A DNA stretch of 45,827 bases from an uncultured Acidimicrobiales bacterium (GCA_964514465.1 CAZERQ010000004.1:1-45827); one strand, 5' to 3'. Counted from the stretch's first letter, positions 2,239 to 43,282 are shown. The notes: a model not told the origin generated them from the letters alone. Numbers and translations: made by a program.

Positions 2239-3765
2239 CTAGCCCACCTGCTCGCCGTCGATCCAAACTTTGCTGACCGGATTCTCCGGCATTGCCTCGG
2301 CAACCTCACCCCAAGGCGCCGACAGCAAACACAGATCCGCCACCGCCCCCGGCATGACCAACCGCGGTGGCCCACCCGGATCCGCCAAGTCAGCCAAAAA
2401 CAAACACAAGGCCTGCTCGGGCGACAGCCGTTCCGACTCACCCAGCACCACTCCCCCGGGTTGGGTCTTGCGTTCAACTGCAGCCCAAATCGCCCGCCAC
2501 GGATTCGGCTCGCCAAACGGTGCATCAGTGCTGCCCGCCACCAGCAATCCAGCACCCAGCAAACCCCGGCAGCGATACAACCACTCCTGATCGTCTGCTT
2601 CCACTTCGCTCAGGTATCTGTCGCCCCTTTCGGCCACAAAGTTCGGCTGGGTAACCACCCGCAGGCGGTGCCCCAACATGGCTTCCACCAGATCGGGGGG
2701 AGCGACACTGGCATGTTCCACCCTGTCGCCCGGCACCGAGCCAACCTCATCCAGCACTGCCAACAGCAAGGCCAACGAAGCGCGGCTGACGCAGTGAACC
2801 GCCACCGGCCGGTCGGATTGGCGCGCGTTTGTTGCCTTAGGAGTGTCTACGGCCCGGCGCGCGCTTGCACTCTGGCGGGCATCCGAAATTTCCTGAGCCA
2901 ACTGATCAAACGACGGCAGGCTGTGTTCTGACAAAATGATCTTGTGTGGCCCGCCTCCCACTTCGCCGCCTGAACTTGCCTCCGCTTCGGGCACCATCAG
3001 CTGCAACTTTTGCGGCAGCGCGCCCCCGCGACCCAGCGCGCTCCCGCGACCCAGCGCGCTCCCGCCCCTAGCCCGCGAAAAAAACTCAGCCTCCCGCGCG
3101 CCATAGCCCGGGGTGGCGTCGGTGACTCCCGTGACTCCGTAACCCGCCAGCAGATCACCCACCCGGCGAAGCTGGCCGGCAGCGTTGGACTGCTCCAAAT
3201 CCTGCAGGCGCACCAAACTGTCGCTGCGGAAAAACCGACCGGTCGGCTCACCACTGTCGTCTAACTCCGCGCCAGCCGTCTCCCCAGACAAACTCAGAAG
3301 CTCCATCGCCAAGCTGTTGAACATCCACAGTGCGCCGCTGGAATGCTGCACCCGCACTGGCCGCCCAACCACCACACGATCCAGCTCCAACCGACCCAAC
3401 TCCCCTGCCACGGATTCGTGGTAGCCCACTGCCCTAATCCAGTCGGCGGTGAACTCAGTTGCGGCGACTAAGGCTTGACAAAATTCATCCCATCCACCAA
3501 CTTCAGGCGGGCCGACACTAACAGAGGTCAAAGACTCGGCCAGCGCCAGCAGATGTATGTGGTGATCGTGAAGACCGGGAATCAGCGCCGCCCCGTCAGC
3601 ATCGATTTCCATGTCAAAGCCATCCAGGTCATAACCCGAGCCGTCCAAGGCAGCACCCACCGGCAGCACCTGGCTGACCTTGCCGTCCGACACGACCACA
3701 TCGGCCAGATACCTGCCAGCCAAATCCGACTTCAACAGCTCGGCGTTGTGAATCACGAATTTCAT
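2239..3765 (-). CDS. Amidohydrolase-superfamily metal-dependent hydrolase (Amidohydro_3-like)
   Basis: N-terminal HxH metal motif (GLHDHHIHLLA), then VAVHCVS, GDRVEHAS and GSTDAPFG in the order expected for TIM-barrel amidohydrolases. The start overlaps the stop of the upstream CoA-transferase gene (ATGA, 3762-3765). Carries an in-frame 18-bp x3 repeat (GSALGR). Confidence 0.75.
   Translation of the reverse strand: MKFVIHNAELLKSDLAGRYLADVVVSDGKVSQVLPVGAALDGSGYDLDGFDMEIDADGAALIPGLHDHHIHLLALAESLTSVSVGPPEVGGWDEFCQALVAATEFTADWIRAVGYHESVAGELGRLELDRVVVGRPVRVQHSSGALWMFNSLAMELLSLSGETAGAELDDSGEPTGRFFRSDSLVRLQDLEQSNAAGQLRRVGDLLAGYGVTGVTDATPGYGAREAEFFSRARGGSALGRGSALGRGGALPQKLQLMVPEAEASSGGEVGGGPHKIILSEHSLPSFDQLAQEISDARQSASARRAVDTPKATNARQSDRPVAVHCVSRASLALLLAVLDEVGSVPGDRVEHASVAPPDLVEAMLGHRLRVVTQPNFVAERGDRYLSEVEADDQEWLYRCRGLLGAGLLVAGSTDAPFGEPNPWRAIWAAVERKTQPGGVVLGESERLSPEQALCLFLADLADPGGPPRLVMPGAVADLCLLSAPWGEVAEAMPENPVSKVWIDGEQVG
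3016..3069. repeat. 18-bp tandem repeat x3, in-frame in the amidohydrolase gene
   Basis: CAGCGCGC(C/T)CCCGCGACC x2 plus a diverged third copy. Encodes GSALGR-type hexapeptides. Confidence 0.85.
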
Positions 3766-5018
3766 TGTGTGTCACCATTGGACGAGGAAGCGGTAGCCGC
3801 CGCGGAAGCGGCCACGCCATCGGCCAGCCATCTCGCAACTCCCGCCATTGGAATGTCCAGCACCACGCCACCTGTGCGTGAGTGGTCTGCGCCAGACCAG
3901 ACATCCAAAACCGCCGCGGCCGCATAGGCACCGGTGGCCGGATCGGCAACAGCATCACCCACAAAACACGGCAGCCCCGAAGCACAGTCACCCGGCCCCG
4001 ACCAGACCAAACCACCTGCAGCGGCCGCATCATCGCCAAAAGCCACCCGTCCGGTCTGTCCGCCAAGCAGTCCATAGCCAGTAATCCCAACCCAGATGCC
4101 GCCGCTTTGCGCCACCACCTCACAGGGATCAACGCCCAGCTGCTCCAGAGCCCTCGCCCGGCAAGATGAAATCACCACATCGGCCTCAAGCAAGAGCCCA
4201 ACCAGCCGATCCCTGCCCGCGGTGGTCGCAAAGTCGACAACGCAATGCTGCTTGGCCGAGTTCAGCCGGTCATAAAACTCGGGCTGGCCCAGTTTGATGC
4301 CGTCAGGCCTGGCGGCGCTTTCAACCTTGACAACATCAGCACCCAGTTGCGCCAGCAGATTGCCGCACAGCGGACCCGCCCACATGGACGACATGTCCAC
4401 GATCTTGGCCGACGCCAGGCTGTCGCGTTGGCGCCTGGGGTGTTGGTCTTTGGCTTTTGGACGACTATGTGACTTGATTACAGATCCGACAACGGACGCG
4501 GCCTTGTGAACGGACGCGGCCTTGTGCAAGCTGTGGCCGCCGCCCAAAAAGCTGTCCACCTCACAAACCGCCAACCCGAGTTCCGCGGCGCTGGCCTGCA
4601 GTCGGACGCCGGGGCATTTGGCCACCCACTCGGTAATCGCTTCCCAGTCGCCCCCGCGATCCCTGCTGCCTCCGTCATCCCGTCCGACCACAGCCCCAAC
4701 ATATTCCCCCGATGCCAGCGACAACCAAGCCACAACCATATCCCAGTCGCAAGCCCGCGGCAAATTGACAGCCACCACACCGTCGCTTGCCCGCAACATC
4801 CGGCACGCACCCCCAACCGAGACAGACTCCCGTCGGCTCCACAAATCAGCAGCTGACAAACCCAGCAGCTCAGCCCTATCGGTGAGCAGTCGCTCGCCCG
4901 GAAACCGACCATGCGCCCCGGCATCAGCAGCCAGCAAATCAGCCAGCGGCTCCGCCAAGCGAGCCAACTTTTGCATCAAATCGCCCCAAGCCTTAAATTG
5001 TGTAGCAAAATTTTTCAC
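3762..5018 (-). CDS. Family III CoA-transferase (CaiB/BaiF-like) with about 200-aa N-terminal extension
   Basis: KIVDMSSMWAGPLCGNLLAQLGADVVKVESAARPDG matches the family III CoA-transferase signature, followed by ADVVISSCRARALEQLG and FGDDAAAAGG. The signature starts near aa 205 instead of near the N-terminus. Contains an in-frame 18-bp x2 repeat (HKAASV). Confidence 0.75.
   Translation of the reverse strand: MKNFATQFKAWGDLMQKLARLAEPLADLLAADAGAHGRFPGERLLTDRAELLGLSAADLWSRRESVSVGGACRMLRASDGVVAVNLPRACDWDMVVAWLSLASGEYVGAVVGRDDGGSRDRGGDWEAITEWVAKCPGVRLQASAAELGLAVCEVDSFLGGGHSLHKAASVHKAASVVGSVIKSHSRPKAKDQHPRRQRDSLASAKIVDMSSMWAGPLCGNLLAQLGADVVKVESAARPDGIKLGQPEFYDRLNSAKQHCVVDFATTAGRDRLVGLLLEADVVISSCRARALEQLGVDPCEVVAQSGGIWVGITGYGLLGGQTGRVAFGDDAAAAGGLVWSGPGDCASGLPCFVGDAVADPATGAYAAAAVLDVWSGADHSRTGGVVLDIPMAGVARWLADGVAASAAATASSSNGDTQ
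4491..4526. repeat. 18-bp perfect tandem duplication, in-frame in the CoA-transferase gene
   Basis: AACGGACGCGGCCTTGTG x2 encodes HKAASVHKAASV. Confidence 0.9.
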
Positions 5019-5048
5019 AAGCTAAAATTATTCTAACGGAGGTTTCAC

Positions 5049-5351
5049 ATGCAACTAAAAGCAGGCACAAGATTGATAAGCAGCGTATGCAGCACCGAGG
5101 CGGTGGTGGTCAAGGCACCCGACCAGGACATTGCCGTGACTTGCGGCGGCGCGCCCATGTCGACATCGGGCGACGCAGCAGCAGGCGAACTTTCCCCCGA
5201 TGCCAGCGGCGGCACTTTGCTCGGCAAACGATACGTCAACGAGGACGAAAGCCTGGAGCTTCTGTGCACCAAACCGGGCGACGGATCGCTTGGCATCGGC
5301 TCTTACCTGCTGTCGGTCAAAGAGACCAAGCCTCTGCCAGCTTCGGACTAG
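5049..5351 (+). CDS. Small hypothetical protein (100 aa)
   Basis: ATG is preceded by a strong Shine-Dalgarno (taacGGAGGtttcacATG). The ORF sits between the CoA-transferase and acyl-CoA synthetase genes. No family recognised. Confidence 0.55.
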   Translation: MQLKAGTRLISSVCSTEAVVVKAPDQDIAVTCGGAPMSTSGDAAAGELSPDASGGTLLGKRYVNEDESLELLCTKPGDGSLGIGSYLLSVKETKPLPASD

Positions 5352-5373
5352 CGACCTGCCGAACTCGACACCG

Positions 5374-5412
5374 CCCCCCCCCAAGCGACACCTAGCACCC
5401 GCGCCCCCCCCC
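5374..5412 (+). repeat. Two C9 homopolymer tracts 30 bp apart in the 5' region of the acyl-CoA synthetase gene
   Basis: C9 at 5374-5382 and C9 at 5404-5412, within the 81-bp spacer between the small-ORF stop (5351) and the ATG at 5433. Confidence 0.9.
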
Positions 5413-5432
5413 GCCAACCCAACCACCCTGCG

Positions 5433-6929
5433 ATGAACGTCATAACCCTGCTGGACATGGCCCGCAACTGCTTCCCGGACCGCCCGGCGCTCACCTGCGG
5501 CAACCGCCACCTCACCTACCAGGACATATACGGCCTGTCGGCCAGGGCAGCCCGCCACATCCGCGACAGCGAGGTGGATCACGTGAGCCTGATTGACATC
5601 TCCTCGCCCGCGCTGCCGGTGGCTTTCTTCGCTTCAGCCCGGGCGGGCAAGCCGTTCGCCCCCCTGAACTATCGCCTCTCCAAATCCGACCTGTCTGATC
5701 TGCTCGGGCGGATTTCACCCGCACTGGTGATCTGCGGCCACGACTATCAAGACCAGATCAAGCCGTCAGCCAAGCTCAGCCAGATAAGCAGCGAAAACTG
5801 GCTCGGCGCAAACCCAGACGGAAGCGACCCAGATGAAGACTGGGACTCTGACCCCGAAGCCACCGCAGTTCTGCTGTTCACCTCCGGCACAACCGGCGGC
5901 CCCAAAGCTGCCATCCTGCGCCACCGCAACCTATTCACCTACGTCACCGACAGTGTTGAATTCATGAGCGCCGGCCCCGAAGAGGCAGTCCTCACCGCCG
6001 TCCCGCCATATCACATCGCCGCCGTGGCCAACATGCTCAGCTCGATCTATGCCGGCCGCCGCATCGTCCAGCTGCCCAACTTTGATGCCGACACCTGGAT
6101 CGATCTGGTCAAGGCCGAGCAGGTCACCCACGCCATGCTGGTGCCCACCATGCTGGCCCGCATTGCCGACCGGCTCGAAGCCCGATGCGAAACCCTGCCC
6201 AGCCTGACGTCAGTCTCCTATGGCGGTGGCAAGACCTCGCGCCCGATGGTCGAAAAGATCCTCGAGCTTTTGCCCCACACCAACTTCGTCAACGCCTATG
6301 GCCTGACCGAGACCAGCTCAACCGTCTCAATCTTGGGCCCCAAGGAACACCGCGAAGCCATCGCCAGCGACGACCCGGCTGTGCGCTCCCGTCTGGGCTC
6401 AGCCGGCATGCCACTGCCCACGCTTGAGGTTTCCATCCGCGACAGCCAGGGCGAACAGGTCGCCATCGGGCAAAGCGGCGAGATCTGGATCCGCGGCGAT
6501 CAGGTGTCGGGGGAATACCAGGGCCAGGCGAGCCAGCTCACGCCCGACGGCTGGTTCCGCACCAACGATGGCGGCCGCTTTGACTCAGACGGCTACCTCT
6601 ATATTGAAGGACGGCTGGACGATGTGATCATTCGGGGTGGCGAGAACATCTCACCGGGCGAGATCGAAGACGTCCTGCTGGCGCACGACAGTATCTCCGA
6701 TGCCGCGGTTGTGGGCCTGGCCGACCCGGACTGGGGCGAGCAGATTGCAGCCGTGGTGGTTCTCAAACAGGGCGCGCAGGCCAGCGAAGCCGAAATCATC
6801 GAGCATGTGCGCGGCCAGCTCCGCTCGCTCAAGTCACCCGATCGGGTGTTCTTCCGGGACGAGTTGCCGTATAACTCCACGGGCAAGCTGTTGCGCACCG
6901 TGTTGCGCGAGGAAATTGCCGACAGCTGA
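5433..6929 (+). CDS. AMP-dependent acyl-CoA synthetase/ligase (ANL superfamily)
   Basis: AMP-binding motifs LLFTSGTTGGPKAA, YGLTETS, GEIWIRG, TNDGGRFDSDGYLYIEGRLDD, GENISPGEIE and C-terminal PYNSTGKLLR. Confidence 0.88.
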   Translation: MNVITLLDMARNCFPDRPALTCGNRHLTYQDIYGLSARAARHIRDSEVDHVSLIDISSPALPVAFFASARAGKPFAPLNYRLSKSDLSDLLGRISPALVICGHDYQDQIKPSAKLSQISSENWLGANPDGSDPDEDWDSDPEATAVLLFTSGTTGGPKAAILRHRNLFTYVTDSVEFMSAGPEEAVLTAVPPYHIAAVANMLSSIYAGRRIVQLPNFDADTWIDLVKAEQVTHAMLVPTMLARIADRLEARCETLPSLTSVSYGGGKTSRPMVEKILELLPHTNFVNAYGLTETSSTVSILGPKEHREAIASDDPAVRSRLGSAGMPLPTLEVSIRDSQGEQVAIGQSGEIWIRGDQVSGEYQGQASQLTPDGWFRTNDGGRFDSDGYLYIEGRLDDVIIRGGENISPGEIEDVLLAHDSISDAAVVGLADPDWGEQIAAVVVLKQGAQASEAEIIEHVRGQLRSLKSPDRVFFRDELPYNSTGKLLRTVLREEIADS

Positions 6930-6947
6930 CTGGCGCGTTATTTTTGT

Positions 6948-6983
6948 CGCCACCCACCTTGCCGACGCCGCCCACCTTGCCGC
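6948..6983. repeat. 18-bp tandem repeat x2, intergenic
   Basis: CGCCACCCACCTTGCCGA / CGCCGCCCACCTTGCCGC, between the acyl-CoA synthetase stop and the crotonase-family start. Confidence 0.85.
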
Positions 6984-7018
6984 CCTCCGTTGTTGTCGGG
7001 CCTGATTTTGCCTAAACC

Positions 7019-8194
7019 ATGACAGGGCCCGTTGTCTTTGACTCCGTTGAGTCTCTGCGGAGTTTTCTGTGGCACCCGCACGCGCACGAGAATTTTGACG
7101 AATACTGTCCGCTGCTGCTGCTTGAGTTGGGCGCGCAGGCTCTGTCGTCTTTTGTCGGCGTTGGCCAGACGGATGACGAAACGCAGGAGTCGGCGCAGGA
7201 GTCGGCGCGGGATCTGGCCCGGCAGCTGCGACATTTCCCGGCAGTCACCGCGTTGTCTGTGGCCGTATCTGGCGACGACATCATCCCGGCCAACACAAGC
7301 CCAAACCTGGAGCAGCTTGTCGCGGGCTTTGACATTCTGCTCACCAATGCGGGCGCGGGCCAGCCGCCCGTCAGCCAACACCCATGGATAACAGTGCCCG
7401 ACCTGACCCACGCCATAGCCGACCTGACCGCCACGCTGAAAACCTCGCCGCAGGCTTCCATCTCCCTGGTGCAGCTGCTGCGAACCAGCGAAAACCTGTC
7501 GGTGCACGACGCGCTGATGGCCGAGTCGTGGGTGTATTCCAAACTCCAGAGCGGAGCCGAGTTCGCCCGCTGGCTGCAGACCTCTTCGGCCAAACCAGTG
7601 CTGGCCCCGGCCACCCAGTCCCTGCCGGTCATCACCCAGTCGGCACCGGTTCTGGTCGAACAGCACGGCGACAGCCTCAGGCTCATCCTCAACCGCCCCG
7701 AACGGCGCAACGCCTTCAACGCCGAGATGCGCGATGCCCTGGTTGAAGCCTTGCGTGCTGCCCGTCTGTCGCCACCCACTGGCGGCATCACCTTCAGCGG
7801 CGCGGGCAAAGCGTTCTGCTCGGGCGGCGACCTGGACGAATTCGGCACAACGCCCAACCCGGTGACTGCCCACATTGTCCGTTCGATGCGCAGCACAGCC
7901 TGGGAGATACATCTGCTGAGCGGCCACATTACCGCCAAGCTCCATGGAGCCTGCGTGGGTGCCGGCATCGAGCTGCCGTCTTTCGCTCATCGGGTCGTGG
8001 CGGCCGAAGACGCTTTTTTCTGGCTGCCCGAAGTTCGCCTGGGGTTGGTGCCCGGCGCCGGTGGCACAGCCGGCATCCCGCGGCGGATCGGACGACAGCG
8101 CACCTGTTGGATGGCGCTCAGCAACCGCCGCTTTGATGTCCAAACTGCGCTGGCATGGGGGCTGATTGACGACATTGAGTCGGAGCCGGACTAG
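7019..8194 (+). CDS. Enoyl-CoA hydratase/isomerase (crotonase) family protein with extra N-terminal half
   Basis: The C-terminal half has LILNRPERRNAFNAEMRDAL, GAGKAFCSGGDL, GACVGAGIELPSFA and LPEVRLGLVPGAGGT (crotonase oxyanion-hole and core motifs). The N-terminal ~195 aa is not a standard crotonase core but ends with a helix segment resembling a crotonase C-terminus. Confidence 0.75.
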   Translation: MTGPVVFDSVESLRSFLWHPHAHENFDEYCPLLLLELGAQALSSFVGVGQTDDETQESAQESARDLARQLRHFPAVTALSVAVSGDDIIPANTSPNLEQLVAGFDILLTNAGAGQPPVSQHPWITVPDLTHAIADLTATLKTSPQASISLVQLLRTSENLSVHDALMAESWVYSKLQSGAEFARWLQTSSAKPVLAPATQSLPVITQSAPVLVEQHGDSLRLILNRPERRNAFNAEMRDALVEALRAARLSPPTGGITFSGAGKAFCSGGDLDEFGTTPNPVTAHIVRSMRSTAWEIHLLSGHITAKLHGACVGAGIELPSFAHRVVAAEDAFFWLPEVRLGLVPGAGGTAGIPRRIGRQRTCWMALSNRRFDVQTALAWGLIDDIESEPD

Positions 8195-8238
8195 CGCGAG
8201 TCAGGCGCCGGCGCAAACCAAAACCCCACAACCCCCAA

Positions 8239-9504
8239 CTAGCGGCGCCGTTTCCTCCGCACCCGCTGGCTGGTCTTTTGCCTGTGCCGTCCTCTTTGCG
8301 CCAGCCGTTCTCGCTCCTCACGCTTTTCGCCCAAGTCGGCCACCTCGCTCCACAGCCGGTGGTATCGCTCAAGCCTGTCGGCGGCAATCTCCCCGCTGGC
8401 AACCGCCTCCAGTACGGCGCACTCAGGCTCCATGCGATGGGTGCAGTCCCGGAATTTGCAGCTCTGGGCCCGCTCGGAAATATCTGAAAACACCTCATCC
8501 AGGGCGACATCGGCAGCCCACAGCCCCACCGCTCGCAGACCTGGCGTGTCGATCAGCACGCCGCCTCGGGGCAACAGCAACAGATCACGCGCCACGGTGG
8601 TGTGCTGTCCCCTGCCAGATGCCAAGGTTCCAGCCGTCGATTTGGATTCACCAGCCACCCCGGATTCGTCGGCCACCTCTGATTCACCGGCCACCTCGGG
8701 AACGAAGCCAGTGGCCGCGGCAAACTCCGAGCCGCCCTGCCGCAACAACAACGCCCGAGCCAAGCTGGACTTGCCCACCCCCGATGCCCCGATGAACACC
8801 AGCGTCTGTCCGGCTCCCGTCTGCCCGGCTCCAACTTGTGCCTCAAGCAGATCCAACCCTCTGGTCTTGCCCAGCCCGCAGGTCGCCACCACTTCCACCT
8901 CGGGCGCCAGATCCGACACCTGTCCCTTCAGCTGCGCCAACCTCTTGCGGGAGTTCTTGCCTGCAACCAGATCGACCTTGTTCAGCACGACCAGCGGACG
9001 GGCGCCGCTGTTGACCGCCACCACCAGCAGTCGCTCAAGCTGCGCCGGCACCAGTTTGCGATCCAGTCCTAGCACCACCCCAACCACATCCACGTTTGAG
9101 ACGATCGACTGCTCCGCGGTGCCGCCCGCCGGATCGCGCCGCACCAGCTCGGTGCGGCGGGGCAGGATGCTGTCTATCACCCAGCCGACCCCGGACTCCT
9201 GGCTCACCAGCACCCAGTCGCCGGTCACCGGGGCCGTGGCGTCCTGGGAAATCTCCGAGCTGGACTTTGCGCCCAAGCTGCCCCGCTGCGTGAACACCAC
9301 GCAAGCGCCCCTGTCCACCCTGCCGATTCGCCCCGGCAAGCTGTCTCGCAATTGGGCGTTATCGTGCGCCACGGCTTGGGCTGCTTGCGCAAAATGGTCG
9401 TCCCAGCCCATCAACGCCAGCAGATTGTCGGGTGGGTTGTCGTGCAGCGGGCTTGTGCGGTTTTCGCTAGGCAGGCCCGTGCGGTTTTCGTGCGGTAAAC
9501 TCAT
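8239..9504 (-). CDS. rsgA: Ribosome small-subunit-dependent GTPase A
   Basis: Circularly permuted GTPase order: G4 VLNKVDL, G1 GASGVGKSSL, G3 LIDTPG, then the Zn-finger CKFRDCTHRMEPECAV. The start is uncertain. The ATG at 9411 (MGWDDHF) would leave a more plausible 116-bp divergent intergenic region. Confidence 0.85.
   Translation of the reverse strand: MSLPHENRTGLPSENRTSPLHDNPPDNLLALMGWDDHFAQAAQAVAHDNAQLRDSLPGRIGRVDRGACVVFTQRGSLGAKSSSEISQDATAPVTGDWVLVSQESGVGWVIDSILPRRTELVRRDPAGGTAEQSIVSNVDVVGVVLGLDRKLVPAQLERLLVVAVNSGARPLVVLNKVDLVAGKNSRKRLAQLKGQVSDLAPEVEVVATCGLGKTRGLDLLEAQVGAGQTGAGQTLVFIGASGVGKSSLARALLLRQGGSEFAAATGFVPEVAGESEVADESGVAGESKSTAGTLASGRGQHTTVARDLLLLPRGGVLIDTPGLRAVGLWAADVALDEVFSDISERAQSCKFRDCTHRMEPECAVLEAVASGEIAADRLERYHRLWSEVADLGEKREERERLAQRGRHRQKTSQRVRRKRRR
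8645..8698. repeat. 18-bp tandem repeat x3, in-frame in rsgA
   Basis: GATTCACCAGCCACCCCG / GATTCGTCGGCCACCTCT / GATTCACCGGCCACCTCG encodes (E/G)(V/S)A(G/D)ES repeats. A separate 15-bp x2 repeat (GTCTG(T/C)CCGGCTCC(C/A), 8804-8833) encodes GAGQTGAGQT. Confidence 0.85.
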
Positions 9505-9527
9505 CTTTGAAGCCAGGTCAGTTTGCT

Positions 9528-11474
9528 ATGTCCATTTCCGAAAGCGATAACTCTAAGATTAGCCGCGCCGACGGCGGCACTGGCAATGCTGCTGGCAACA
9601 CTACCGGCGGCATCGCTGCCGACACAACTGGCGGCACTACCGCCCACACCACTGGCGGCCAAACTGCCCGGCACAGCGGGGCGTGGCTGGCCCGGGCCAT
9701 AGCCGGACTGCTGGGCGCCGGCGCGGGGCTGACGGTTGGCGAAGTCGCCTCGGCTGCCTCGACCAGCATTCCGTCCCTGGTGATAGCGGTCAGCGATTCG
9801 GTCATCGACAGCACCTGGGTGCCATTCTGGTTGCGCCGCTGGAGCATCGACCAGCTCGGTTCGGCGCAGAAACCGGCATTGGTGGCGGGTGTGGTTTGCG
9901 TTACACTTTTGGTGGGGGCGATTGTGGGTGTGCTGGCTGGACGATGGCGCAATCAGACCGGGGGCCGGAGCGAGCAAACCGGGGACAGGCGCGCTCATGT
10001 CGGAAGCGGTAACTGGCGCGCTATGGCTGCGGTGGCACTGCCGGCAGCGGTATACATCGCTTTCGGCATCGTGGCCGGGCTGTCGTCCGCTCAAAATCCA
10101 ATGTCGTCTGATTTCTGGTCTGGCTTTGTGTCCGGACTGGCCGCGCTGGTGGCAGCCGCAGTTACCTACACGCTGCTGTGGGCCGTCCCCGATCCGCAGC
10201 GCATCACCGGCCAATCCATCGTCGTCCAGACAAATCTGAGGCTGCAGGAGCGGCGGCGCTTCATTGTGCTGGCGGGTGCATCGTCGGTGGCTTTCTTGCT
10301 GGCCAACGTGATCAGCCGTGCGGTGGCCCGACAGGTTGACGTGGAAACCTCGCGCATTGAAGTCGCCAGCCTGCTGGAGCGCGCCCGGGGCAGCGATGGC
10401 GCAGGTGGTGCGGGCGGCGGCACCGGCGGCTCTGCTTCAGATGCCACAACGTCCAACTCGGCCCCGACCACCAGCGCACCCGGGCAGGCATCGCAAGGCG
10501 GCTCGGCGGGTTCGTCGGGCTCAACGGGCTCGGGCTCGGCAAGCTCGGCCAACCTGCCGGCCAACCTTGACGACATCGCCGGCATCTCCCCGCTGATCAC
10601 CCCCAACTCCGATTTCTACCGCATCGACACAGCACTCATCGTGCCTCGTCTGACAGCCGACTCATGGAACATGACGGTCAGCGGCATGGTCGACAACCCA
10701 CTGGAGCTGAACTTTGAACAGCTGGTGATGTCGTATCCTCTGGTGAGCGAAACCGTGACTTTGTCGTGCGTGTCCAACCCGGTTGGCGGCGAGTTGGTGG
10801 GCAATGCTGTCTGGGAAGGGGTGCGTCTGTCGGACGTGCTGGAAGATGCGGGCGTCCAGCCGGGCGCCGACCAAATCTCGGGGCGGTCGGTGGACAACTG
10901 GGCCAGCGGCTTCCCCACCGAGCTGGCATTTGATGGACGGGTGGCCATGATAGCGGTGGCGATGAACGGCGAACCGCTGCCGGCCCGGCACGGCTTCCCA
11001 GCCCGTTTGGTGATCGCCGGGCTCTATGGCTATGTCTCGGCCACCAAATGGCTGCGCGACATCCACCTGACCACCTGGGAAGGTTTTGACAGCTATTGGG
11101 TGCCGCGGGGCTGGGCCAAGCGGGGGCCGATCAGAACCCAGTCGCGCATTGACGTTCCCCGGGGAAGCAATGCCGCTTTGCCGGCCGGCCAGCCGCTGGC
11201 AATTGCCGGTGTCGCCTGGGCGCCGCATCGCCGCATCAGCCAGGTGGAGGTGCGCATTGACGACCAGCCCTGGGCGCAGGCCGAACTCAGCCGGGAGTTG
11301 TCTACCAGCTCCTGGCGCCAGTGGGTCTATCGCTGGGACGAGCCGACCCCGGGCAACCACACCGTTGTGGTGCGCGCCACCGACGGCGATGGCGAAACAC
11401 AGACGCAAGTCCGCACGCCGCCCGCCCCCAGCGGCGCCACGGGTTGGCACACCAAAAGTTTCAGGGTGGCCTAG
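9528..11474 (+). CDS. Membrane-anchored molybdopterin-dependent oxidoreductase (sulfite-oxidase/YedY-like fold)
   Basis: Several hydrophobic helices in the N-terminal ~260 aa, then a Gly/Ser-rich linker. The Moco domain follows with TVTLSCVSNPVGG (Cys ligand context) and RHGFPARLVIAGLYGYVSATKWL, then an Ig-like C-terminal domain. First ATG at 9528; the track TTG at 9507 is less likely. Confidence 0.75.
   Translation: MSISESDNSKISRADGGTGNAAGNTTGGIAADTTGGTTAHTTGGQTARHSGAWLARAIAGLLGAGAGLTVGEVASAASTSIPSLVIAVSDSVIDSTWVPFWLRRWSIDQLGSAQKPALVAGVVCVTLLVGAIVGVLAGRWRNQTGGRSEQTGDRRAHVGSGNWRAMAAVALPAAVYIAFGIVAGLSSAQNPMSSDFWSGFVSGLAALVAAAVTYTLLWAVPDPQRITGQSIVVQTNLRLQERRRFIVLAGASSVAFLLANVISRAVARQVDVETSRIEVASLLERARGSDGAGGAGGGTGGSASDATTSNSAPTTSAPGQASQGGSAGSSGSTGSGSASSANLPANLDDIAGISPLITPNSDFYRIDTALIVPRLTADSWNMTVSGMVDNPLELNFEQLVMSYPLVSETVTLSCVSNPVGGELVGNAVWEGVRLSDVLEDAGVQPGADQISGRSVDNWASGFPTELAFDGRVAMIAVAMNGEPLPARHGFPARLVIAGLYGYVSATKWLRDIHLTTWEGFDSYWVPRGWAKRGPIRTQSRIDVPRGSNAALPAGQPLAIAGVAWAPHRRISQVEVRIDDQPWAQAELSRELSTSSWRQWVYRWDEPTPGNHTVVVRATDGDGETQTQVRTPPAPSGATGWHTKSFRVA
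9597..9668. repeat. 24-bp tandem repeat x3, in-frame at the 5' end of the Mo-oxidoreductase gene
   Basis: AACACTACCGGCGGCATCGCTGCC / GACACAACTGGCGGCACTACCGCC / CACACCACTGGCGGCCAAACTGCC encodes NTTGGIAA/DTTGGTTA/HTTGGQTA. Confidence 0.8.
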
Positions 11475-12373
11475 CCGCGCCGTCTTTCGTTTACTTTGGA
11501 AGCTGTCCAGCGAGCCAGCGGCGTGGGCACGACATCCAAAAATGCCGACATCACCTTGTTGATCCCACCGGGCACACACAGCGGTGTGCGCTTGTCCAGT
11601 GCCTTGATGGAAATCTCCGCCACTTCGTCGGCCGACATCCAGGCCATATCCGGCAGGTCGGACACATGCGCCAGTCCATCGGATCGCTCGTGCAGCTCGG
11701 TGCGGGTCACGCCGGGCGCCACCGCGCAGACGTGCACTCCGCTGTCTTTCAACTCGCCATAGAGCCCCTGGCTGAAGCTGGTGACGAACGCCTTGGTCGC
11801 GCCATAGGTGGCCTCAAACGGCAACGGCAAAAATCCCGCGATGGACGAGACATTCAGCACTGCGCCATGCGAACGCTTGACCATCTCGGGTATGGCGGCG
11901 TGGGTCAGCTCCACCAGCGCCAACAGGTTGACACTGATCATCTGCTGCAGGTCGGACTGCTTCATGTCCGCGAACGGCGTGAAGTTCCAGATGCCGGCAT
12001 TGTTCACCAGCAGGTCGATTTGGCGGCCGGGTTTGGCCGCGCTGGAAGGGGTCGCGCCCGGGGAAGCCGCGCTTGACGGATCCGCGCCAGTCTTGAGTCG
12101 CTGTGCCACAGCTTTTCGCTGGGTGGCTTTGGACAGGTCGGCTGCCAGCACTTCGGTTTCAACTGCCTGCTCAGCTTCTAGCTCGGCGGCCAGTTTTTCC
12201 AGTCGCTGCTGATTGCGGGCGACCAGCACCAGATTCATCTGTCGCTGCGCCAGTTTGCGCGCCAGGCTCAAGCCAATGCCGCTGGAAGCTCCTGTGATCA
12301 GAGCCCATGCGCCTGGCGACACGACCTTTCGGTTGGGCTGCACATTTCGGTTCAGCAAATCGTCCATAGTCAT
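11471..12373 (-). CDS. Short-chain dehydrogenase/reductase (SDR)
   Basis: ALITGASSGIGLSLARKLA (TGxxxGxG), NNAG, and catalytic YGATKAF. Confidence 0.85.
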   Translation of the reverse strand: MTMDDLLNRNVQPNRKVVSPGAWALITGASSGIGLSLARKLAQRQMNLVLVARNQQRLEKLAAELEAEQAVETEVLAADLSKATQRKAVAQRLKTGADPSSAASPGATPSSAAKPGRQIDLLVNNAGIWNFTPFADMKQSDLQQMISVNLLALVELTHAAIPEMVKRSHGAVLNVSSIAGFLPLPFEATYGATKAFVTSFSQGLYGELKDSGVHVCAVAPGVTRTELHERSDGLAHVSDLPDMAWMSADEVAEISIKALDKRTPLCVPGGINKVMSAFLDVVPTPLARWTASKVNERRRG

Positions 12374-12421
12374 CTCCCTATGCTAGCTTGCAAACTTGAG
12401 TGGTGGTTAGCGGACCGGACT

Positions 12422-12500
12422 GCGGGCGGTGGGCGAACTTGGGCGGAGGTGGGCGAACCTGCGGGTGGCGGCCAAACTTGGGCGGAGATGGGTGAACTCG
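12422..12500. repeat. Imperfect ~20-bp x4 (~40-bp x2) tandem repeat, intergenic
   Basis: GCGGGCGGTGGGCGAACTTG / GGCGGAGGTGGGCGAACCT / GCGGGTGGCGGCCAAACTTG / GGCGGAGATGGGTGAACTCG, between the SDR start and the CBS-gene stop. Confidence 0.7.
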
Positions 12501-14850: not shown

Positions 14851-14858
14851 GGCTTGGC

Positions 14859-14958
14859 GGGTGCCTCGGGGTTGACGGGTGCCTCGGGGTTGGCGGGCGT
14901 CACGGGGTTGACGGGCGTCACGGGGTTGGCGGGTGCCTCGGGGTTGCTCGCGGGGTTG
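14859..14958. repeat. 18-bp tandem repeat, 5.5 copies, intergenic
   Basis: GGGTGCCTCGGGGTTGAC / GGGTGCCTCGGGGTTGGC / GGGCGTCACGGGGTTGAC / GGGCGTCACGGGGTTGGC / GGGTGCCTCGGGGTTGCT / CGCGGGGTTG. It starts 9 nt upstream of the DUF21-CBS gene ATG (14850). Confidence 0.9.
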
Positions 14959-15108
14959 TGAAACACAGGATTGCGCAAAAGCACGTTAAAATGGATGAGT
15001 TGCCGCCCTCAGTAAATCAAAGCAAGAATTCGCCTGGTAAGAAATTGCCTAGTTTCAGTCTAGCCGGGTCTGTCTGTCTAGCCGTGCCTGAATTCATCGG
15101 GAGTTTTT

Positions 15109-17043
15109 GTGTCCGCTAGCCCCGAAGTCGCCACCGGGCCTGAAGTCGCCATACACCCCGACCCGTCGCTCGGCTGGCTCAAGCGGCTCTGGCCTTTGGT
15201 CATGGCGCACAAGCCGCTGGTGTGGATCGGCGTGGTCGGCGGCGTGGTCGGTCTGGGCACCCAAGTGGGCGTCCCGCTGGCAGCGCGCCAAGCCATAGAC
15301 GTGGCCGCAACCTCGGGATCTGTGGCCGTGTGGATTTGGCTGTTGGTCGGTCTCGGGCTGGCCCGCATCGGCTTTTCCATCGCCTATCGTTATAGCCTGT
15401 TCAAGCTGGCGTTCTGCATCGACAGCCACCTGCGCATGCTGATCTACAGCCACCTGGGCTGTCTGTCATTCTCATATTACGACCACACCCAGTCGGGCGA
15501 CGTCATCTCGCGCGCCAACAGCGACATCCGCTCCATCCAGATATTCTTTTCGTTCGCCCCGATTGCGGTGATTGCCATCTTGTCGTTCGTGTTCTCCTTT
15601 GCGGCCATGCTGGTCATCCACATCCCGCTGGCGCTGGTGGCCATGAGCACGCTGCCGTGGGTGCATTATTTCGGGATGCGATTCAGGCGCACGGTGTTCC
15701 CGCTGTCGTGGATCACCCAGGCGCGCATGGCCGAGGTGGCCGCCATCGTGGACGAGAACATCAGCGGCACCCGCGTGGTGAAATCCTTTGCCGCCGAAAA
15801 GCAGCAGATCCTCACGTTGTCGCGCTCCGCGCAGCGGCTGCAGTGGGCGGCCACCGCCACGGTCGAGGCCCGGGCCCGCTTCAACCCGCTGATTGAGGCG
15901 CTGCCCAGGATTTCCATGATGGCGATGCTGCTCTATGGCGGCTGGCTGGTGATCGAAGGACAGACCACGGTGGGCACGCTTTTTGCGTTCGTGGCCTATG
16001 TTTTGATGCTGCAGATGCCGTTTCGGTTGGTGGGGTTTTTGCTGACGCAGGGGCAGCGGGCGGAGGCTTCGGCCAAGCGAATATATGAGGTGCTGGACAC
16101 CCGGGCGGACGTGGCGGAGGCAGACGATGCCGTGGAGTTGGGGGATTGTTCGGGGGAGGTTTGCTTTGAGGATGTCTGGTTCGCCTATCCCGAGGATCCC
16201 CGCAAGCGCGCGGGCGTGGGTGACGGGGGCGCGGACGACGGGGGCGACGAGGGCATGGACGGGAGCGCGGGCGCGCAAGCACAAAATGTTCTGCGGGGCT
16301 TCAACCTGCATATCCAACCCGGCGAGACCGTTGCCCTGGTGGGCGCCACGGGATGTGGAAAGTCCACCGTCGCCCGGCTGCTGGCCAGGTTCTACGACAC
16401 CGACCGCGGAGCCGTCAAACTCGACGGCCATGACGTGCGGGATCTGCAGATCGCCAGTCTGCGGCAACACACCGGCATTGTTTTTGACGAGCCATTTCTG
16501 TTCTCCGAGTCGCTGGCCGACAACATCGCCTATGGGCTCCCCGACTCCGAGCTCGCGCAAATTCAGTCTGCCGCCAGAGCCGCCCAAGCCCACGACTTCA
16601 TCCAGGCATTGCCCAACCAATATGACACCGTGGTGGGCGAGCGGGGCTATACCCTGTCGGGCGGGCAGCGTCAGCGGGTGGCGTTGGCGAGGACCCTGCT
16701 GGAGCAGCCCGGGATTTTGGTGTTGGACGACGCCACCAGCGCGGTGGATGTCCACGTGGAGGCCCAGATCCACACCGCCCTGAAACAGCAGATGAGCCAG
16801 CGAACCACCATTTTGATTTCGCACCGGCTGTCCACCATTGCGCTGGCCGACCGGGTTGTGCTGATGCGCGACGGGCGGGTGCTGGCCGAGGGAACGCATC
16901 AGGAGCTGTTGGATACCAACCCGTATTACAGCCAAGTGCTGACCAACACCGCGGCGGAGCGCGCGGAGGGTGAGGCGGCTGGCGCGGGAGCGGGGGCGGC
17001 AAACGCGGAGGGTGAGGATGTGCGCGCGGAGGTGGTGAGCTGA
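15109..17043 (+). CDS. ABC exporter, fused permease/ATPase (half-transporter 1 of a heterodimer)
   Basis: Six-helix TMD, then an NBD with Walker A GATGCGKST, signature LSGGQRQRVALARTLL and Walker B ILVLDDATSAVD. GTG start is preceded by gGGAGtttttGTG. The stop overlaps the start of the next half-transporter (17043). Confidence 0.88.
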   Translation: MSASPEVATGPEVAIHPDPSLGWLKRLWPLVMAHKPLVWIGVVGGVVGLGTQVGVPLAARQAIDVAATSGSVAVWIWLLVGLGLARIGFSIAYRYSLFKLAFCIDSHLRMLIYSHLGCLSFSYYDHTQSGDVISRANSDIRSIQIFFSFAPIAVIAILSFVFSFAAMLVIHIPLALVAMSTLPWVHYFGMRFRRTVFPLSWITQARMAEVAAIVDENISGTRVVKSFAAEKQQILTLSRSAQRLQWAATATVEARARFNPLIEALPRISMMAMLLYGGWLVIEGQTTVGTLFAFVAYVLMLQMPFRLVGFLLTQGQRAEASAKRIYEVLDTRADVAEADDAVELGDCSGEVCFEDVWFAYPEDPRKRAGVGDGGADDGGDEGMDGSAGAQAQNVLRGFNLHIQPGETVALVGATGCGKSTVARLLARFYDTDRGAVKLDGHDVRDLQIASLRQHTGIVFDEPFLFSESLADNIAYGLPDSELAQIQSAARAAQAHDFIQALPNQYDTVVGERGYTLSGGQRQRVALARTLLEQPGILVLDDATSAVDVHVEAQIHTALKQQMSQRTTILISHRLSTIALADRVVLMRDGRVLAEGTHQELLDTNPYYSQVLTNTAAERAEGEAAGAGAGAANAEGEDVRAEVVS

Positions 17044-19034: not shown

Positions 19035-19872
19035 GAAAGCGGCCGGGGCAGCAGCTATTGAGTTTGAGGGTGTTGGCGTTAGGCGCCAGGGTCGGTGGCT
19101 GCTGCGCGACATTGACTGGCAGGTCGAGGCTGGCCAGCGCTGGGTGGTGCTGGGTGCCAATGGTGCCGGCAAGACGACTTTGCTGAGGGTGGTGTATGGC
19201 GAGATTTTCCCCACTTCAGGGTTTGCCAGCGTGCTGGGGCATCGGCTGGGGCAAGTTGACCTGCGCCGGTTGCGTCAGAAGGTCGGCCTGACGGGAGCGT
19301 TTTTGGAAAGCAGCCTGCGCCCCGAGACCACCGCCGGTGACGTCGTGGTGTCGGCCAAGTTCGCCGCCAAACAGACCTGGTGGCACAACTATGGCCCAGA
19401 CGATGTGCACCGGGCGCGGGAACTGCTGGATCTGGTGGGCTGCGGTCGGCTGGTTGATGCTCCGTTCGGCGACTGCTCATCTGGGGAACGTCAGCGGATT
19501 TTATTGGCCAGGGTGCTGATGCCGCGGCCGAGATTGCTGATTTTGGACGAGCCGATGGCCAACCTGGATCTGGGTGGGCGCGAGCAGTTGCTGGCGGTGC
19601 TCTCGGGGGAAGGTGGCCGGGGCGGCGAAGACAAAGCGAGCGGCGCGGGCAGCATCTATGCCGACAACCCTGGCCTGTCGTCTGTTTTGGTTACCCATCA
19701 CACCGAGGAGATCCCGGCGGGCAGCACCCATCTGCTTTTGCTCAAGGACGGGGAGGCGATGTCATCCGGGCTGATAGCTGAGGTTTTGACTGCGGAGAAT
19801 TTGAGCCGCTGTTTTGGTTTGGAGTTGGAGTTGGAGCGCGTCGGCGGGCGGTGGCGGAGTCGGGCGCGGTGA
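19027..19872 (+). CDS. Stand-alone ABC ATP-binding protein (no adjacent permease)
   Basis: Walker A GANGAGKTTLL, signature SSGERQRILLARVL and Walker B LLILDEPMANLD. The ATG at 19027 overlaps the upstream stop (ATGGGTGA). The longer track start at 18955 would read through the repeat tail of the upstream gene. Confidence 0.8.
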   Translation: MGEKAAGAAAIEFEGVGVRRQGRWLLRDIDWQVEAGQRWVVLGANGAGKTTLLRVVYGEIFPTSGFASVLGHRLGQVDLRRLRQKVGLTGAFLESSLRPETTAGDVVVSAKFAAKQTWWHNYGPDDVHRARELLDLVGCGRLVDAPFGDCSSGERQRILLARVLMPRPRLLILDEPMANLDLGGREQLLAVLSGEGGRGGEDKASGAGSIYADNPGLSSVLVTHHTEEIPAGSTHLLLLKDGEAMSSGLIAEVLTAENLSRCFGLELELERVGGRWRSRAR

Positions 19873-19904
19873 CCGGAAGCGAACGCGGCGAGAGTGGCGG
19901 GGGG

Positions 19905-20546
19905 TTAGGCCAGCAAACCCTCCAGCTCGTGGATCACCAGCAGGATGCCTGACTTCACGCTCACCATGGCTTCGTATCCCATCAGTTCGTTGCTGACACC
20001 GCGGCTGGATCCCAGCTTCAGCGTCTCATAGTCAAGCTCCCAGCGCAACCCTCGGGCCAGCACACCTTCAACATCTCCACCCCAGGGAATTAGCGAAACA
20101 TACTGCCCCGCCAGCCCTTCGAACATCACCCTGTCTGTGACCACGTGGACGATAGCTGAGCCCATCTGGGCGGTTACTTGAATGTGGGCGGGCAGGGCGG
20201 CCAGCAGATCAACATTGGCCAGAGAGTGATCCAGCCGACCGCCGTGGCCGCCGATCATGGTGATGCTGGTGGGGTTCTGCTCAAGCGCTGCTTGAAATGC
20301 CAGATCTAGGTCAGTGGCGTCTTTGTCGGTGTCAAATTTGCGCACCTGTGCTCCGGTTCTTTCGGCGTGGGCTATGGCACTTGCGGGAGTGGAATCCAGA
20401 TCGCCCACCAACAGATCCACCTCAACCCCGTGAGCCTGGGCGACCAGCAGGCCCGAGTCGGCTGCAATGACATAGTTGGGCGGGGCCGGCAACATCCGGA
20501 AGATGCGGGCAACCTTGTCGCCACCGGCAAAGACCCAGATGTTCAT
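19905..20546 (-). CDS. Thiamine pyrophosphokinase (TPK/ThiN-type)
   Basis: VIAADSGLLVA, VGDLDS and FDTDKDATDLDLAF are TPK catalytic-domain motifs, followed by a C-terminal thiamine-binding beta domain. Size 213 aa. Confidence 0.75.
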   Translation of the reverse strand: MNIWVFAGGDKVARIFRMLPAPPNYVIAADSGLLVAQAHGVEVDLLVGDLDSTPASAIAHAERTGAQVRKFDTDKDATDLDLAFQAALEQNPTSITMIGGHGGRLDHSLANVDLLAALPAHIQVTAQMGSAIVHVVTDRVMFEGLAGQYVSLIPWGGDVEGVLARGLRWELDYETLKLGSSRGVSNELMGYEAMVSVKSGILLVIHELEGLLA

Positions 20547-40444: not shown

Positions 40445-41134
40445 ATGTCGTGTGGTATTAGTTTTAATATGACCAATACCAACATTGCACAAATCGAAAA
40501 ACCAGCCCAGATGGATCCGACCGGATCAGGACCGAACAGACCCGGCCCCGCCGCGCCCGGCGGTCGCCCTCGCATCGGCCAGACCAGACCCGCCCCCACC
40601 AGACCCGGCGGCCGACCCCGCATCGGCCAAGCCAGACCCGCGCCAGCCCGACCAGCCCACCCACGCATCGGCCAAGCCAGACCCGCCCCCGCCAGAGCCA
40701 AACCGGAGATCCTCAACTTCCGAACATGGGAAGACCCGGTGGCCGACCCATTCGGGCACGACCCCTGCTCGCAATATGTCGAACTCTACTGGTTGCCCAT
40801 CCTCGGGCCCACCGCCATCTTCTTACTGCGGCGCCTCAACATCATCCTCCAACAGAACTCCGGCAGCTTCAGCATCCCCCGACAGCACCTCGCCCACGAA
40901 CTCGGAATATCCCAATGGCACGGCCCCAACTCAACATTCGGTCGGGCACTCGGCCGCTGCTGCGACTTCTCCATGTTCCACCCCCAACAAGGCGACCTGA
41001 TATATGTGCGCCAGCGCATACCCAGCCTCCCTAAACGCCTGTCGCGCCGCCTGCCGGAACGGGTCAGGGAGCTTTATGCCACCTCTCATGGTAGAGCCGC
41101 CGGACGGCCAGCACCTGGTTCAGCTCCTGCTTGA
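40445..41134 (+). CDS. Hypothetical protein with a 16-aa x3 Pro/Arg repeat and a conserved-looking C-terminal domain
   Basis: First ATG at 40445 (alternatives: TTG 40430, ATG 40469). PGGRPRIGQ(T/A)RPAP(T/A)R x3 is encoded by the 48-bp repeat. The C-terminal domain YVELYWLPILGPTAIFLLRRL...LAHELGIS looks winged-helix-like. No family assigned. Confidence 0.55.
   Translation: MSCGISFNMTNTNIAQIEKPAQMDPTGSGPNRPGPAAPGGRPRIGQTRPAPTRPGGRPRIGQARPAPARPAHPRIGQARPAPARAKPEILNFRTWEDPVADPFGHDPCSQYVELYWLPILGPTAIFLLRRLNIILQQNSGSFSIPRQHLAHELGISQWHGPNSTFGRALGRCCDFSMFHPQQGDLIYVRQRIPSLPKRLSRRLPERVRELYATSHGRAAGRPAPGSAPA
40556..40699 (+). repeat. 48-bp tandem repeat x3 (coding, 16-aa Pro/Arg-rich units)
   Basis: Units 40556-40603, 40604-40651 and 40652-40699 share the core CGCATCGGCCA(G/A)(A/G)CCAGACCCGC. 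Confidence 0.85.
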
Positions 41135-42239: not shown

Positions 42240-43225
42240 GCAACCTCCGGGCGCAGCGGTCGGCTCAGCAACGACTCATAGGCCTGCTCCGGGGTGCGCT
42301 CGCCGCGTAGCACCGCCCATACCTGTTCGCAGATCGGCAGCTCCACACCTGTCTCTGCGGCCAGCTCGGCCACCACCTCGGCCGTCCTCACACCTTCGGC
42401 CACCTGTTTCGTCTCCGCCACCACCTCGGCCAGCCCCCGTCCCTTGCCCAGCTCGATGCCCACCGACAGGTTGCGGCTCTGCGTGCTGAAGCAGGTCACC
42501 ATCAGATCGCCGATGCCGGCCAGCCCGGAAAATGTCTCGGGCGCAGCCCCCATCGCCAAGCCCAGCGACTTCATCTCGGCCAGCCCCCGGGTGACCAGCG
42601 CCGCGGTGGTGTTGCGCCCCGAACCCTGCCCCAACGCGATGCCGGCCGCCAGCGCCAGCACGTTCTTCAGCCCGCCGGCCAGCTCCACCCCGATGACGTC
42701 ATCTGAGGTGTATACCCGAAAGCTCGGTGCGGTGAACAGCTTTTGCAGCCGGCACGCGAGCTCGGCTGAGTCGCTGGCGATGACGGTTGCGGTGGGGTGC
42801 TGCTGGAGCGTCTCGCGGGCCAGGTTCGGCCCCGACAGAACCGCCACGGGATTGGGCGCAAACAGCTCCGACAGGATCTGCGAGCCACGGCTTTTGGTGC
42901 CGACTTCGAACCCCTTGGCCAGGCTCACCAGCGGCGTGTCATTGGATATGCGGCCGGACAGCTGGGCTAAGACCTGCCGGAAGGCGTGCGACGGAACGGC
43001 GGCGACCACGGCGCCCGCGCCCGACAGCACTTGGTCGAGGTCGGTGCTAGCGCAGAGACGGTCGGACAGCGGCAGGTCGCCGAGGAAGGCCGGGTTGCGG
43101 CGGTCGTCATTTATGGATTTGGCCACATCGCTGGAGCGGCACCACAGGGCTGTGGGGGTCTGGTCGGCCAGCAGGGAGGCCATGGTCGTGCCCCAGGAGC
43201 CGCCACCGATTACCGCAACTTTCAT
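42236..43225 (-). CDS. gpsA: NAD(P)H-dependent glycerol-3-phosphate dehydrogenase
   Basis: MKVAVIGGGSWGTTMA dinucleotide-binding start, LKNVLALAAGIA, LAGIGDLMVTC and RNLSVG. The ATG at 43225 matches the family N-terminus. The 54 extra codons in the track ORF cover an intergenic 18-bp repeat. Confidence 0.9.
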   Translation of the reverse strand: MKVAVIGGGSWGTTMASLLADQTPTALWCRSSDVAKSINDDRRNPAFLGDLPLSDRLCASTDLDQVLSGAGAVVAAVPSHAFRQVLAQLSGRISNDTPLVSLAKGFEVGTKSRGSQILSELFAPNPVAVLSGPNLARETLQQHPTATVIASDSAELACRLQKLFTAPSFRVYTSDDVIGVELAGGLKNVLALAAGIALGQGSGRNTTAALVTRGLAEMKSLGLAMGAAPETFSGLAGIGDLMVTCFSTQSRNLSVGIELGKGRGLAEVVAETKQVAEGVRTAEVVAELAAETGVELPICEQVWAVLRGERTPEQAYESLLSRPLRPEVA

Positions 43226-43240
43226 AGTCAATAAGTTAGC

Positions 43241-43282
43241 CTGTCTGGGATTGTTGGTCTGTCTGGGATTGCTGGCCCGTCT
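43241..43282. repeat. 18-bp tandem repeat, 2.3 copies, in the gpsA/fbiD divergent intergenic region
   Basis: CTGTCTGGGATTGTTGGT / CTGTCTGGGATTGCTGGC / CCGTCT. Confidence 0.85.

Follow-up and report, generated by a model that had tools for sequence, protein, structure and literature searches.

In Escherichia coli, polA 5′-exonuclease mutants show a duplication mutator phenotype. The mycobacterial interspersed repetitive units (MIRUs), 40-100 bp long and related to one another, form a dispersed family present at a few dozen loci. Microhomology-mediated tandem duplication (MTD) has been described in Schizosaccharomyces pombe (PMC8639346) and across bacteria, archaea and fungi (PMC13167724; bioRxiv 10.64898/2026.02.28.708716). 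Among the MTD events reported, microhomology arms are missing from 25-30% and exceed 3 bp in about 50%, and only 38% of the bacterial events are shorter than 50 bp (PMC13167724); the same paper also cites a duplication mutator phenotype for the rad27 deletion of yeast. The repeats described by Subirana and Messeguer are of fixed size, either 20-21 or 52 nt, have at least 4 copies, are mostly non-coding and form species-specific sequence families (PMC8161180). Here we analyse the short tandem arrays of a stretch of 45,827 nucleotides (CAZERQ010000004.1:1-45827, hereafter the window) from an uncultured Acidimicrobiales bacterium. The arrays are most likely fixed MTD products, which are unusually frequent in this sponge-symbiont family of Acidimicrobiia.

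The window is one contig (C4) of G000, a 1.78-Mb, 194-contig metagenome-assembled genome with 63% GC. Its genus is Candidatus Hopanoidivorans, sponge symbionts of the Acidimicrobiales (Acidimicrobiia), and the organism has a reduced genome (1.8-2.6 Mb). The closest named genome, Candidatus Hopanoidivorans cymbastelae (G003), shares 79% amino-acid identity in the CNNM protein and was placed in the same genus by genome search. Besides G003, which is 88% complete, the congeners were G001 and G002, both single-contig genomes and the latter complete. G004 represents a second genus of the family, G010 and G017 are low-density outgroups, and L204 and L205 are Logan contigs of close relatives, syntenic with window positions 1-12,400. 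No same-species strain of G000 was found in the collections searched (exact-protein look-ups and an RsgA homologue search; the best metagenome match was 58% identical), and a literature search on the genus name and on tandem repeats in Acidimicrobiia sponge symbionts found no paper. Arrays were detected with Tandem Repeats Finder (TRF) at score thresholds of at least 50 and at least 40, and maximal exact runs of at least 12 nt were counted per offset as a statistic independent of the TRF score threshold. The shuffle controls were triplet-preserving and fifth-order Markov. Genes were obtained with a purpose-written codon-usage caller of open reading frames (ORFs), which called 87% of G000 coding and whose calls in the window agreed with Pfam.

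Period spectrum and microhomology signature

At a TRF score of at least 40, G000 contained about 1,400 arrays, which occupied 3.2% of the genome, and at least one array was present in 41% of the predicted genes. At a score of at least 50 there were 1,026 non-redundant arrays, with 231 at period 18, 215 at 15, 121 at 21, 75 at 24 and 69 at 12. The exact runs, a fixed 12-nt statistic that favours long periods, numbered 180 at offset 18, 135 at 15, 79 at 21, 77 at 24, 39 at 12 and 30 each at 16 and 17, whereas the shuffled controls gave 0-5 runs per offset. A sequence-only reading of the window had claimed a mechanistic bias towards 18 bp, with the other periods rarer, and had pointed to a genome-wide spectrum set against shuffles. 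The excess at 18 was indeed huge, but it was not specific to this period. In the TRF counts at a score of at least 40, period 15 stood above period 18 (298 vs 248); the exact two-copy duplications, a count that favours short periods, were 49 at period 15 and 32 at period 18; and a modal period of 15 was clear in the congeners G001 and G002. The other periods were rarer in the window, where 18-bp arrays outnumbered 15-bp arrays 8 to 1, but not genome-wide, and the surplus of the window reflects local fluctuation (binomial p about 0.01, uncorrected for the 194 contigs). Hence, there is no specific 18-bp preference, and the period should not be read as the mark of a special mechanism. The drop above about 18-21 bp was robust, since longer arrays were rarer even though detection favours them. 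The copies per array fell roughly geometrically, with 660, 370, 110 and 31 arrays of 2, 3, 4 and 5 copies, respectively, and 87% of the arrays had 2-3 copies. Array identities lay between 65% and 100% and the match averaged 85%; perfect arrays made up only about 7%. This spread of copy number and identity fits an ongoing birth of arrays, with occasional expansion and slow decay.

The exact two-copy duplications of G000 were followed by a partial third copy with a mean length of 3.5 bp, vs 0.73 bp expected. This partial copy reached at least 3 bp in 53% of the duplications (about 6% expected) and was 0 bp in 20%, and the same microhomology excess was observed in G001 and G002. The excess is the signature of MTD. 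The microhomology sequences were diverse, with 80% GC, and no junction motif was found, i.e., every position around either boundary held at most 0.1 bit of information. The diversity of the microhomologies and the lack of junction information argue against a site-directed enzyme. The sequence-only reading had regarded the arrays as independent events with unrelated units, and this was confirmed: only 145 of the 702,705 unit pairs were related, which ruled out a dispersed repeat family.

The period was a multiple of three in 90% of the coding arrays of G000. For all its intergenic arrays the figure was 57%; it was 75% in gaps over 600 bp, where the ORF caller probably missed genes, and 46% in gaps of at most 300 bp. 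The arrays in these short gaps numbered 20, 5, 18, 15, 14, 11, 21 and 6 at periods of 12, 13, 14, 15, 16, 17, 18 and 19 bp, respectively, with fewer beyond, so that the periods formed a broad, continuous hump at about 11-19 bp and no spike. Array density was 2.0 per kb in the short gaps vs 0.57 per kb in genes. With G002, 36% of the intergenic arrays had a period that was a multiple of three, which is the chance level, and their periods gathered in one hump at 13-16 bp, 18 bp not being represented; the coding arrays of this genome were multiples of three in 88% of the cases, with a mode of 15. These results indicated that the mutation spectrum is a continuous length range, the centre of which differs by species, and that frame selection picks out of it the lengths of 12, 15, 18 and 21 bp. 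The sequence-only reading had also held that frame selection could not explain the intergenic arrays. Frame selection does explain the genic peaks at these four lengths (90% vs 36-46% intergenic); it is not the sole cause of the arrays, and the mutational process proposed in that reading was supported. The arrays were GC-rich (70-73%) and concentrated towards gene ends, within the first and the last tenth. Pro, Ala, Gly, Ser, Asp and Thr made up most of the encoded residues, the first four being enriched.

Turnover of the arrays and their location in proteins

When the proteins were aligned with those of the congeners, the GSALGR x3, HKAASV x2, GAGQT x2, RsgA N-terminal and exporter-tail repeats were found to be G000-specific insertions, all of them in variable loops or tails. 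The two extra GSALGR copies of G000 were absent from the G001, G002 and G003 orthologues. In the tail of the second ABC exporter, G003 had a different array of its own and G001 and G002 had none; independent arrays were present elsewhere in G003 as well, e.g., LSLALG x2. A homologue search with RsgA gave two closest relatives at 82-83% identity (85-86% in the alignment), both without the G000 copies, and the GAGQT unit was single copy in L204, L205 and G003. The G003 rsgA orthologue (C63:10629-11771) carried two in-frame TAG stops inside the match, and may be a pseudogene or contain assembly errors.

The turnover at the DNA level was analyzed by the overlap of indels with TRF arrays. In the three-way alignment of G000, L204 and L205, at about 83% identity, 18 of the 31 indels of at least 9 bp were inside TRF arrays, which span only 3.5-8% of the sequence. 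The aligned length of the array at 7182 was 31 nt in G000, 20 nt in L204 and 8 nt in L205, that of the array at 8803 was 30 nt in G000 and 15 nt in each of the other two, and one L204 array measured 104 nt vs 17 nt in G000 and L205. The array at 6948-6982 was present in L204 and absent from L205. Few arrays were common to all three, e.g., the older one at 9598-9669. The enoyl-CoA-hydratase-like gene (7019-8194, plus strand) and the CoA-transferase III gene (3762-5018, minus strand) had about 200 N-terminal residues without a Pfam match; this N-terminal region was highly indel-prone between close relatives, and an 87-bp array insertion was observed in L204.

The location of the RsgA arrays was analyzed on an AlphaFold2 model built from 38 homologues, with a mean predicted local distance difference test score (pLDDT) of 79.9 and a predicted template modelling score of 0.80. 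The N-terminal repeats were predicted to lie in a tail (residues 1-21, pLDDT <50), the 18-bp array in a loop that is predicted to be disordered (residues 270-303, pLDDT <50), and GAGQT x2 in a predicted coil between helix 217-224 and strand 234-238. The three RsgA arrays were thus in coil, two of them with pLDDT <50, and together with the congener alignments this bore out the earlier suggestion that the coding arrays fall in loops, to which tails can be added. The modelled locations are consistent with a selection that spares only fold-neutral insertions.

Lineage enrichment and its possible causes

The density of offset runs per 100 kb was 43 in G000, 40 in G002, 12 in G001, 13 in G003 and 45 in G004. 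The Logan contigs L204 and L205 gave 100 and 38, and the outgroups G010 and G017 gave 2.5 and 5.5. When 20 other Acidimicrobiales families were pooled the density was 8.0 (range 0-22.5), and unrelated metagenome contigs gave 1-6; the few runs of the outgroups were mostly at offsets 15 and 18. The process is therefore about 5 times the pooled average of the other Acidimicrobiales families and 10-20 times the level of unrelated bacteria. Array density varied about 5-fold in the order and about 3-fold within the genus, and the trait is a continuum within the order, with the Hopanoidivorans family at the top. In non-coding DNA, the density was 2.0-2.1 arrays per kb vs 0.33 per kb in G010 and G017 (about 6x).

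A cause was sought among DNA-processing genes. The Pol I 5′-nuclease domain (PF02739) was present in 31 of 31 genomes, and its catalytic acidic motifs were conserved in G000-G004. This domain of the G000 Pol I (C131:27533-27958) has a 12-residue insertion, after the GDRD motif region, which is not present in relatives and which explains the low PF02739 score of G000. The Pol I of the family has in addition a 1-residue insertion and many substitutions at columns that are invariant in the outgroups. Judged by its sequence, the 5′ flap nuclease is present with intact motifs, and the family does not fit a flap-endonuclease-deficient mutator. A stand-alone flap endonuclease (FEN) paralogue of about 300 residues was present in G000, G003, G004 and most Acidimicrobiales and was not found in the single-contig genomes G001 and G002, a distribution that does not follow array density. 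NucS was present in the genus, ExoVII was present, and DinB was present in G001-G004. All five family genomes except the 88%-complete G003, where it was not detected, had RNase HI, and the enzyme gave no discrimination. No RecJ was found in the 31 genomes, and Ku was found neither in the family nor in the low-density G010 and G017. None of the six gene families examined besides the Pol I nuclease set this family apart from its relatives of low density.

The MTD origin proposed here would operate during replication. A nascent end or flap would meet a short, GC-rich direct repeat at a distance of about 10-20 nt and re-anneal there, and the intervening segment would then be copied twice, leading to a tandem duplication. 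Duplication lengths would vary continuously over roughly 10-20 bp and drop steeply beyond about 18-21 bp, a range that might reflect a mechanistic limit, a faster loss of longer repeats, or both. In genes, selection would purge the periods that are not multiples of three as well as the events in folded regions, so that the survivors would be the 12, 15, 18 and 21 bp peaks in loops, linkers and tails. Slippage would later raise or lower the copy number of the arrays, and point mutations would erode them. The high rate may come from some replication or repair property. It is conceivable, although we hold it only tentatively and think it rather doubtful, that this property gives the duplications of Acidimicrobiales, above all those of this family, a characteristic length of about 15-18 nt. 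The characteristic length shifts by species (13-16 nt in G002, 12-18 nt in G000) and could correspond to that of an unprocessed flap or a primer, or to the footprint of a polymerase or a single-stranded DNA-binding protein. If this were true, a molecular ruler could be read directly from the period spectrum, and the lineage, as a natural mutator, would lend itself to a study of what sets MTD rate and length in bacteria.

Several observations weigh against a raised rate of MTD. In the seven DNA-processing gene families checked, no gene loss accounts for the high rate. The arrays are known here from fixed, partly diverged products only, with no de novo events, in which they differ from MTD as described. 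The lower edge of the length range (<10 bp) is detection-limited and not established. In the short gaps of G000, the multiples of three exceeded the expectation (46% vs 33%, z about 3, hand-computed); this surplus was tentatively attributed to crude gene calls because G002 is without it. Finally, three samples of the L205 species differed by 2-7 substitutions and showed no indel over about 2.5 kb. On this limited evidence, the arrays would not be hypervariable, nor their turnover fast, on strain timescales. The earlier claim of hypervariable sites resembling variable-number tandem repeats (VNTRs) is thus only half supported: copy numbers do differ between relatives at about 83% identity, but these samples were without indels.

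The load might also have built up at an ordinary mutation rate, if weak selection and weak deletion in a small-population, host-restricted symbiont let slightly harmful arrays drift to fixation. The organism is a sponge symbiont with a reduced genome, many of the arrays are old, as judged from their mean match and the small share of perfect ones, and no repair-gene defect was found in the families checked. We nevertheless consider this explanation unlikely, because the non-coding density is about six times that of the outgroups in DNA where selection should be weak everywhere, because selection on frame and fold is still effective (90% multiples of three; loops and tails), and because congeners with the same lifestyle, G001 and G002, differ about 3-fold. 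That the arrays are functional elements constrained in size, either protein-binding or nucleoid-organising repeats or adaptive contingency loci, is very improbable. Bacterial repeats of constant size and variable sequence have been described (PMC8161180), and some of the arrays are in promoter regions, e.g., 14854-14946; however, the size is not constant in the intergenic hump, most arrays have 2-3 copies and form no sequence families, and their positions are not conserved at about 83% identity and fall indiscriminately in housekeeping genes.

A narrow length range could mirror the fixed stagger of a site-directed enzymatic process, such as staggered nicking with fill-in or abortive integration. 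The boundaries without information, the diverse microhomologies and the continuous lengths make such a process extremely unlikely. G000 is a fragmented assembly of 194 contigs, which might raise the suspicion of an assembly or sequencing artefact, but this is scarcely credible: most copies have diverged, an artefact would not yield a reading-frame sieve, and the same pattern was found in two single-contig congeners and in the independent Logan contigs.

Whatever sets their rate, about 4 in 10 of the symbiont genes hold a short duplication, and where close relatives differ by long indels, these are mostly changes in array copies; the arrays are therefore a main source of protein-length change and of low-complexity loops and tails in the lineage. 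The differences in density within the order and the genus offer a natural comparison from which the control of microhomology-mediated duplication in bacteria could be worked out. For annotation, lineage-specific inserts and shifted gene boundaries are to be expected in these genomes.

Arrays of the window and comparison with described systems

The arrays of the window are collected in Table 1. Of the eight 18-bp loci listed in the sequence-only reading, seven were recovered by TRF, which detected an additional one at 24209; the remaining locus, upstream of the ABC exporter gene, was weak. The other periods that it had listed, 12 (7182), 15 (8803), 19 (2215), 24 (9446 and 9591-9669), 20/39 (12420) and 48 bp (40537), were all present.

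Table 1. Tandem arrays of the window, with positions counted from its first nucleotide
Positions	Strand	Array	Location	Basis or remark
2215-2257		19-bp x2.3	Meeting point of two convergent gene ends, non-coding	Period not a multiple of three
3016-3065	-	18-bp x2.8, in frame (GSALGR x3)	Amidohydrolase gene	TRF, 96% matches
4491-4526	-	18-bp x2, perfect, in frame (HKAASV x2)	CoA-transferase III, variable loop	TRF
6948-6982		18-bp x1.9	Intergenic, after acyl-CoA synthetase gene	TRF
7182-7212	+	12-bp x2.6	N-terminal extension of enoyl-CoA-hydratase-like gene	TRF
8644-8699	-	18-bp x3.1, in frame	rsgA (residues about 270-287)	TRF, 78% matches
8803-8832	-	15-bp x2, in frame (GAGQT x2)	rsgA, loop preceding P-loop strand	TRF
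9446-9502	-	24-bp x2, degenerate	Disordered RsgA N-terminal tail	Absent from closest relatives
9591-9669	+	24-bp x3	Near 5′ end of molybdopterin oxidoreductase gene	TRF
12420-12498		20/39-bp	Intergenic	TRF, gene calls; period not a multiple of three
14854-14946		18-bp x5.2, 36-bp higher-order pattern	Divergent gap between CNNM/CorC and ABC exporter genes	TRF
15057-15093		Weak 10-11-nt direct repeat, 18-nt spacing	Upstream of ABC exporter gene	78% identity at offset 18, TRF score <30
16961-17032	+	21-bp x3.4	C-terminal tail of first ABC exporter gene	TRF
18982-19030	+	18-bp x2.7, in frame	C-terminal tail of second ABC exporter gene	TRF
24209-24246	-	18-bp x2.1	Inside gene of 3,897 residues	TRF; additional to earlier list
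40537-40696		48-bp x3.4	Coding status uncertain	TRF, 79% matches
43239-43282		18-bp x2.4	Just upstream of gpsA domain start	TRF

In the array at 14854-14946, two variants of unit position 4 take turns along the five 18-bp copies, and a second block is swapped as well, which indicates that the array grew at least partly by duplication of a 36-bp double unit. It stops 4 nt from the CNNM/CorC start codon, so that the ribosome-binding region is inside the repeat. The array at 43239-43282 is inside the longest gpsA ORF but upstream of the start of the Pfam domain (residue 56); it is plausibly a non-coding 5′ leader or an N-terminal extension of gpsA, and its earlier description as intergenic is thus plausible too. 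The array at 40537-40696 is the sole long-period array of the window and falls outside the main length range of 10-24 bp. The ORF of 3,897 residues (20608-32301, minus strand) holds two short arrays, at 24209 and 26481. Pfam supported the gene identities of the amidohydrolase, CoA-transferase III, RsgA and the ABC exporters, and no RNA family of Rfam matched in the window. GC and AT skews were strong, of opposite signs, and followed the gene strand (window positions 1-6000 and 18001-20000), the coding strand being G- and T-rich with a GC skew of about 0.2 and an AT skew of about -0.12 to -0.23. The GC content is 56% in G001, 52% in G002, 53% in G003 and 43% in G004, and this wide spread, from the 63% of G000 downwards, suggests a shifting mutational bias in the lineage.

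Compared with the described systems, flap-endonuclease mutants are similar in that their short duplications are flanked by direct repeats only a few bases long, but here the Pol I 5′-nuclease domain is present with intact acidic motifs. VNTRs and minisatellites, such as the markers of multiple-locus VNTR analysis and the MIRU-VNTR of Mycobacterium, are likewise short arrays, intergenic as well as genic and in frame, in an actinobacterium, and their copy number differs between related lineages, which in this case are taxa about 83% identical. The arrays are nevertheless not MIRU-type repeats, since about 1,400 loci carry short, unrelated units of 12-24 bp. They share with the repeats of Subirana and Messeguer (PMC8161180) the presence of many arrays per genome that have a characteristic size in common and not a sequence. 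They differ from them by their 2-3 copies, their occurrence in both coding and non-coding DNA, the lack of families and the 11-19-bp hump, and do not belong to the constant-size, variable-sequence class, since the size is not constant, few arrays exceed 3 copies and there are no families.

The likeness to MTD is more extensive. In both cases, single-copy segments flanked by microhomology are duplicated head to tail, the arm-less share is similar (about 20% here vs 25-30% reported) and about half of the events have at least 3 bp, duplications are depleted from coding DNA, and they expand into multi-copy arrays. Three features of MTD were tested, namely an ancestral single copy, a microhomology excess, and coding depletion with a frame sieve, and all three were found. 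The differences are the unit lengths, which here are about 10-24 bp, the density, which is raised over the other families and over unrelated bacteria as given above, and the fact that no defect in Okazaki-fragment processing was found here. The arrays of these genomes represent a high-load case of a known, MTD-type mutation, elevated in one lineage.

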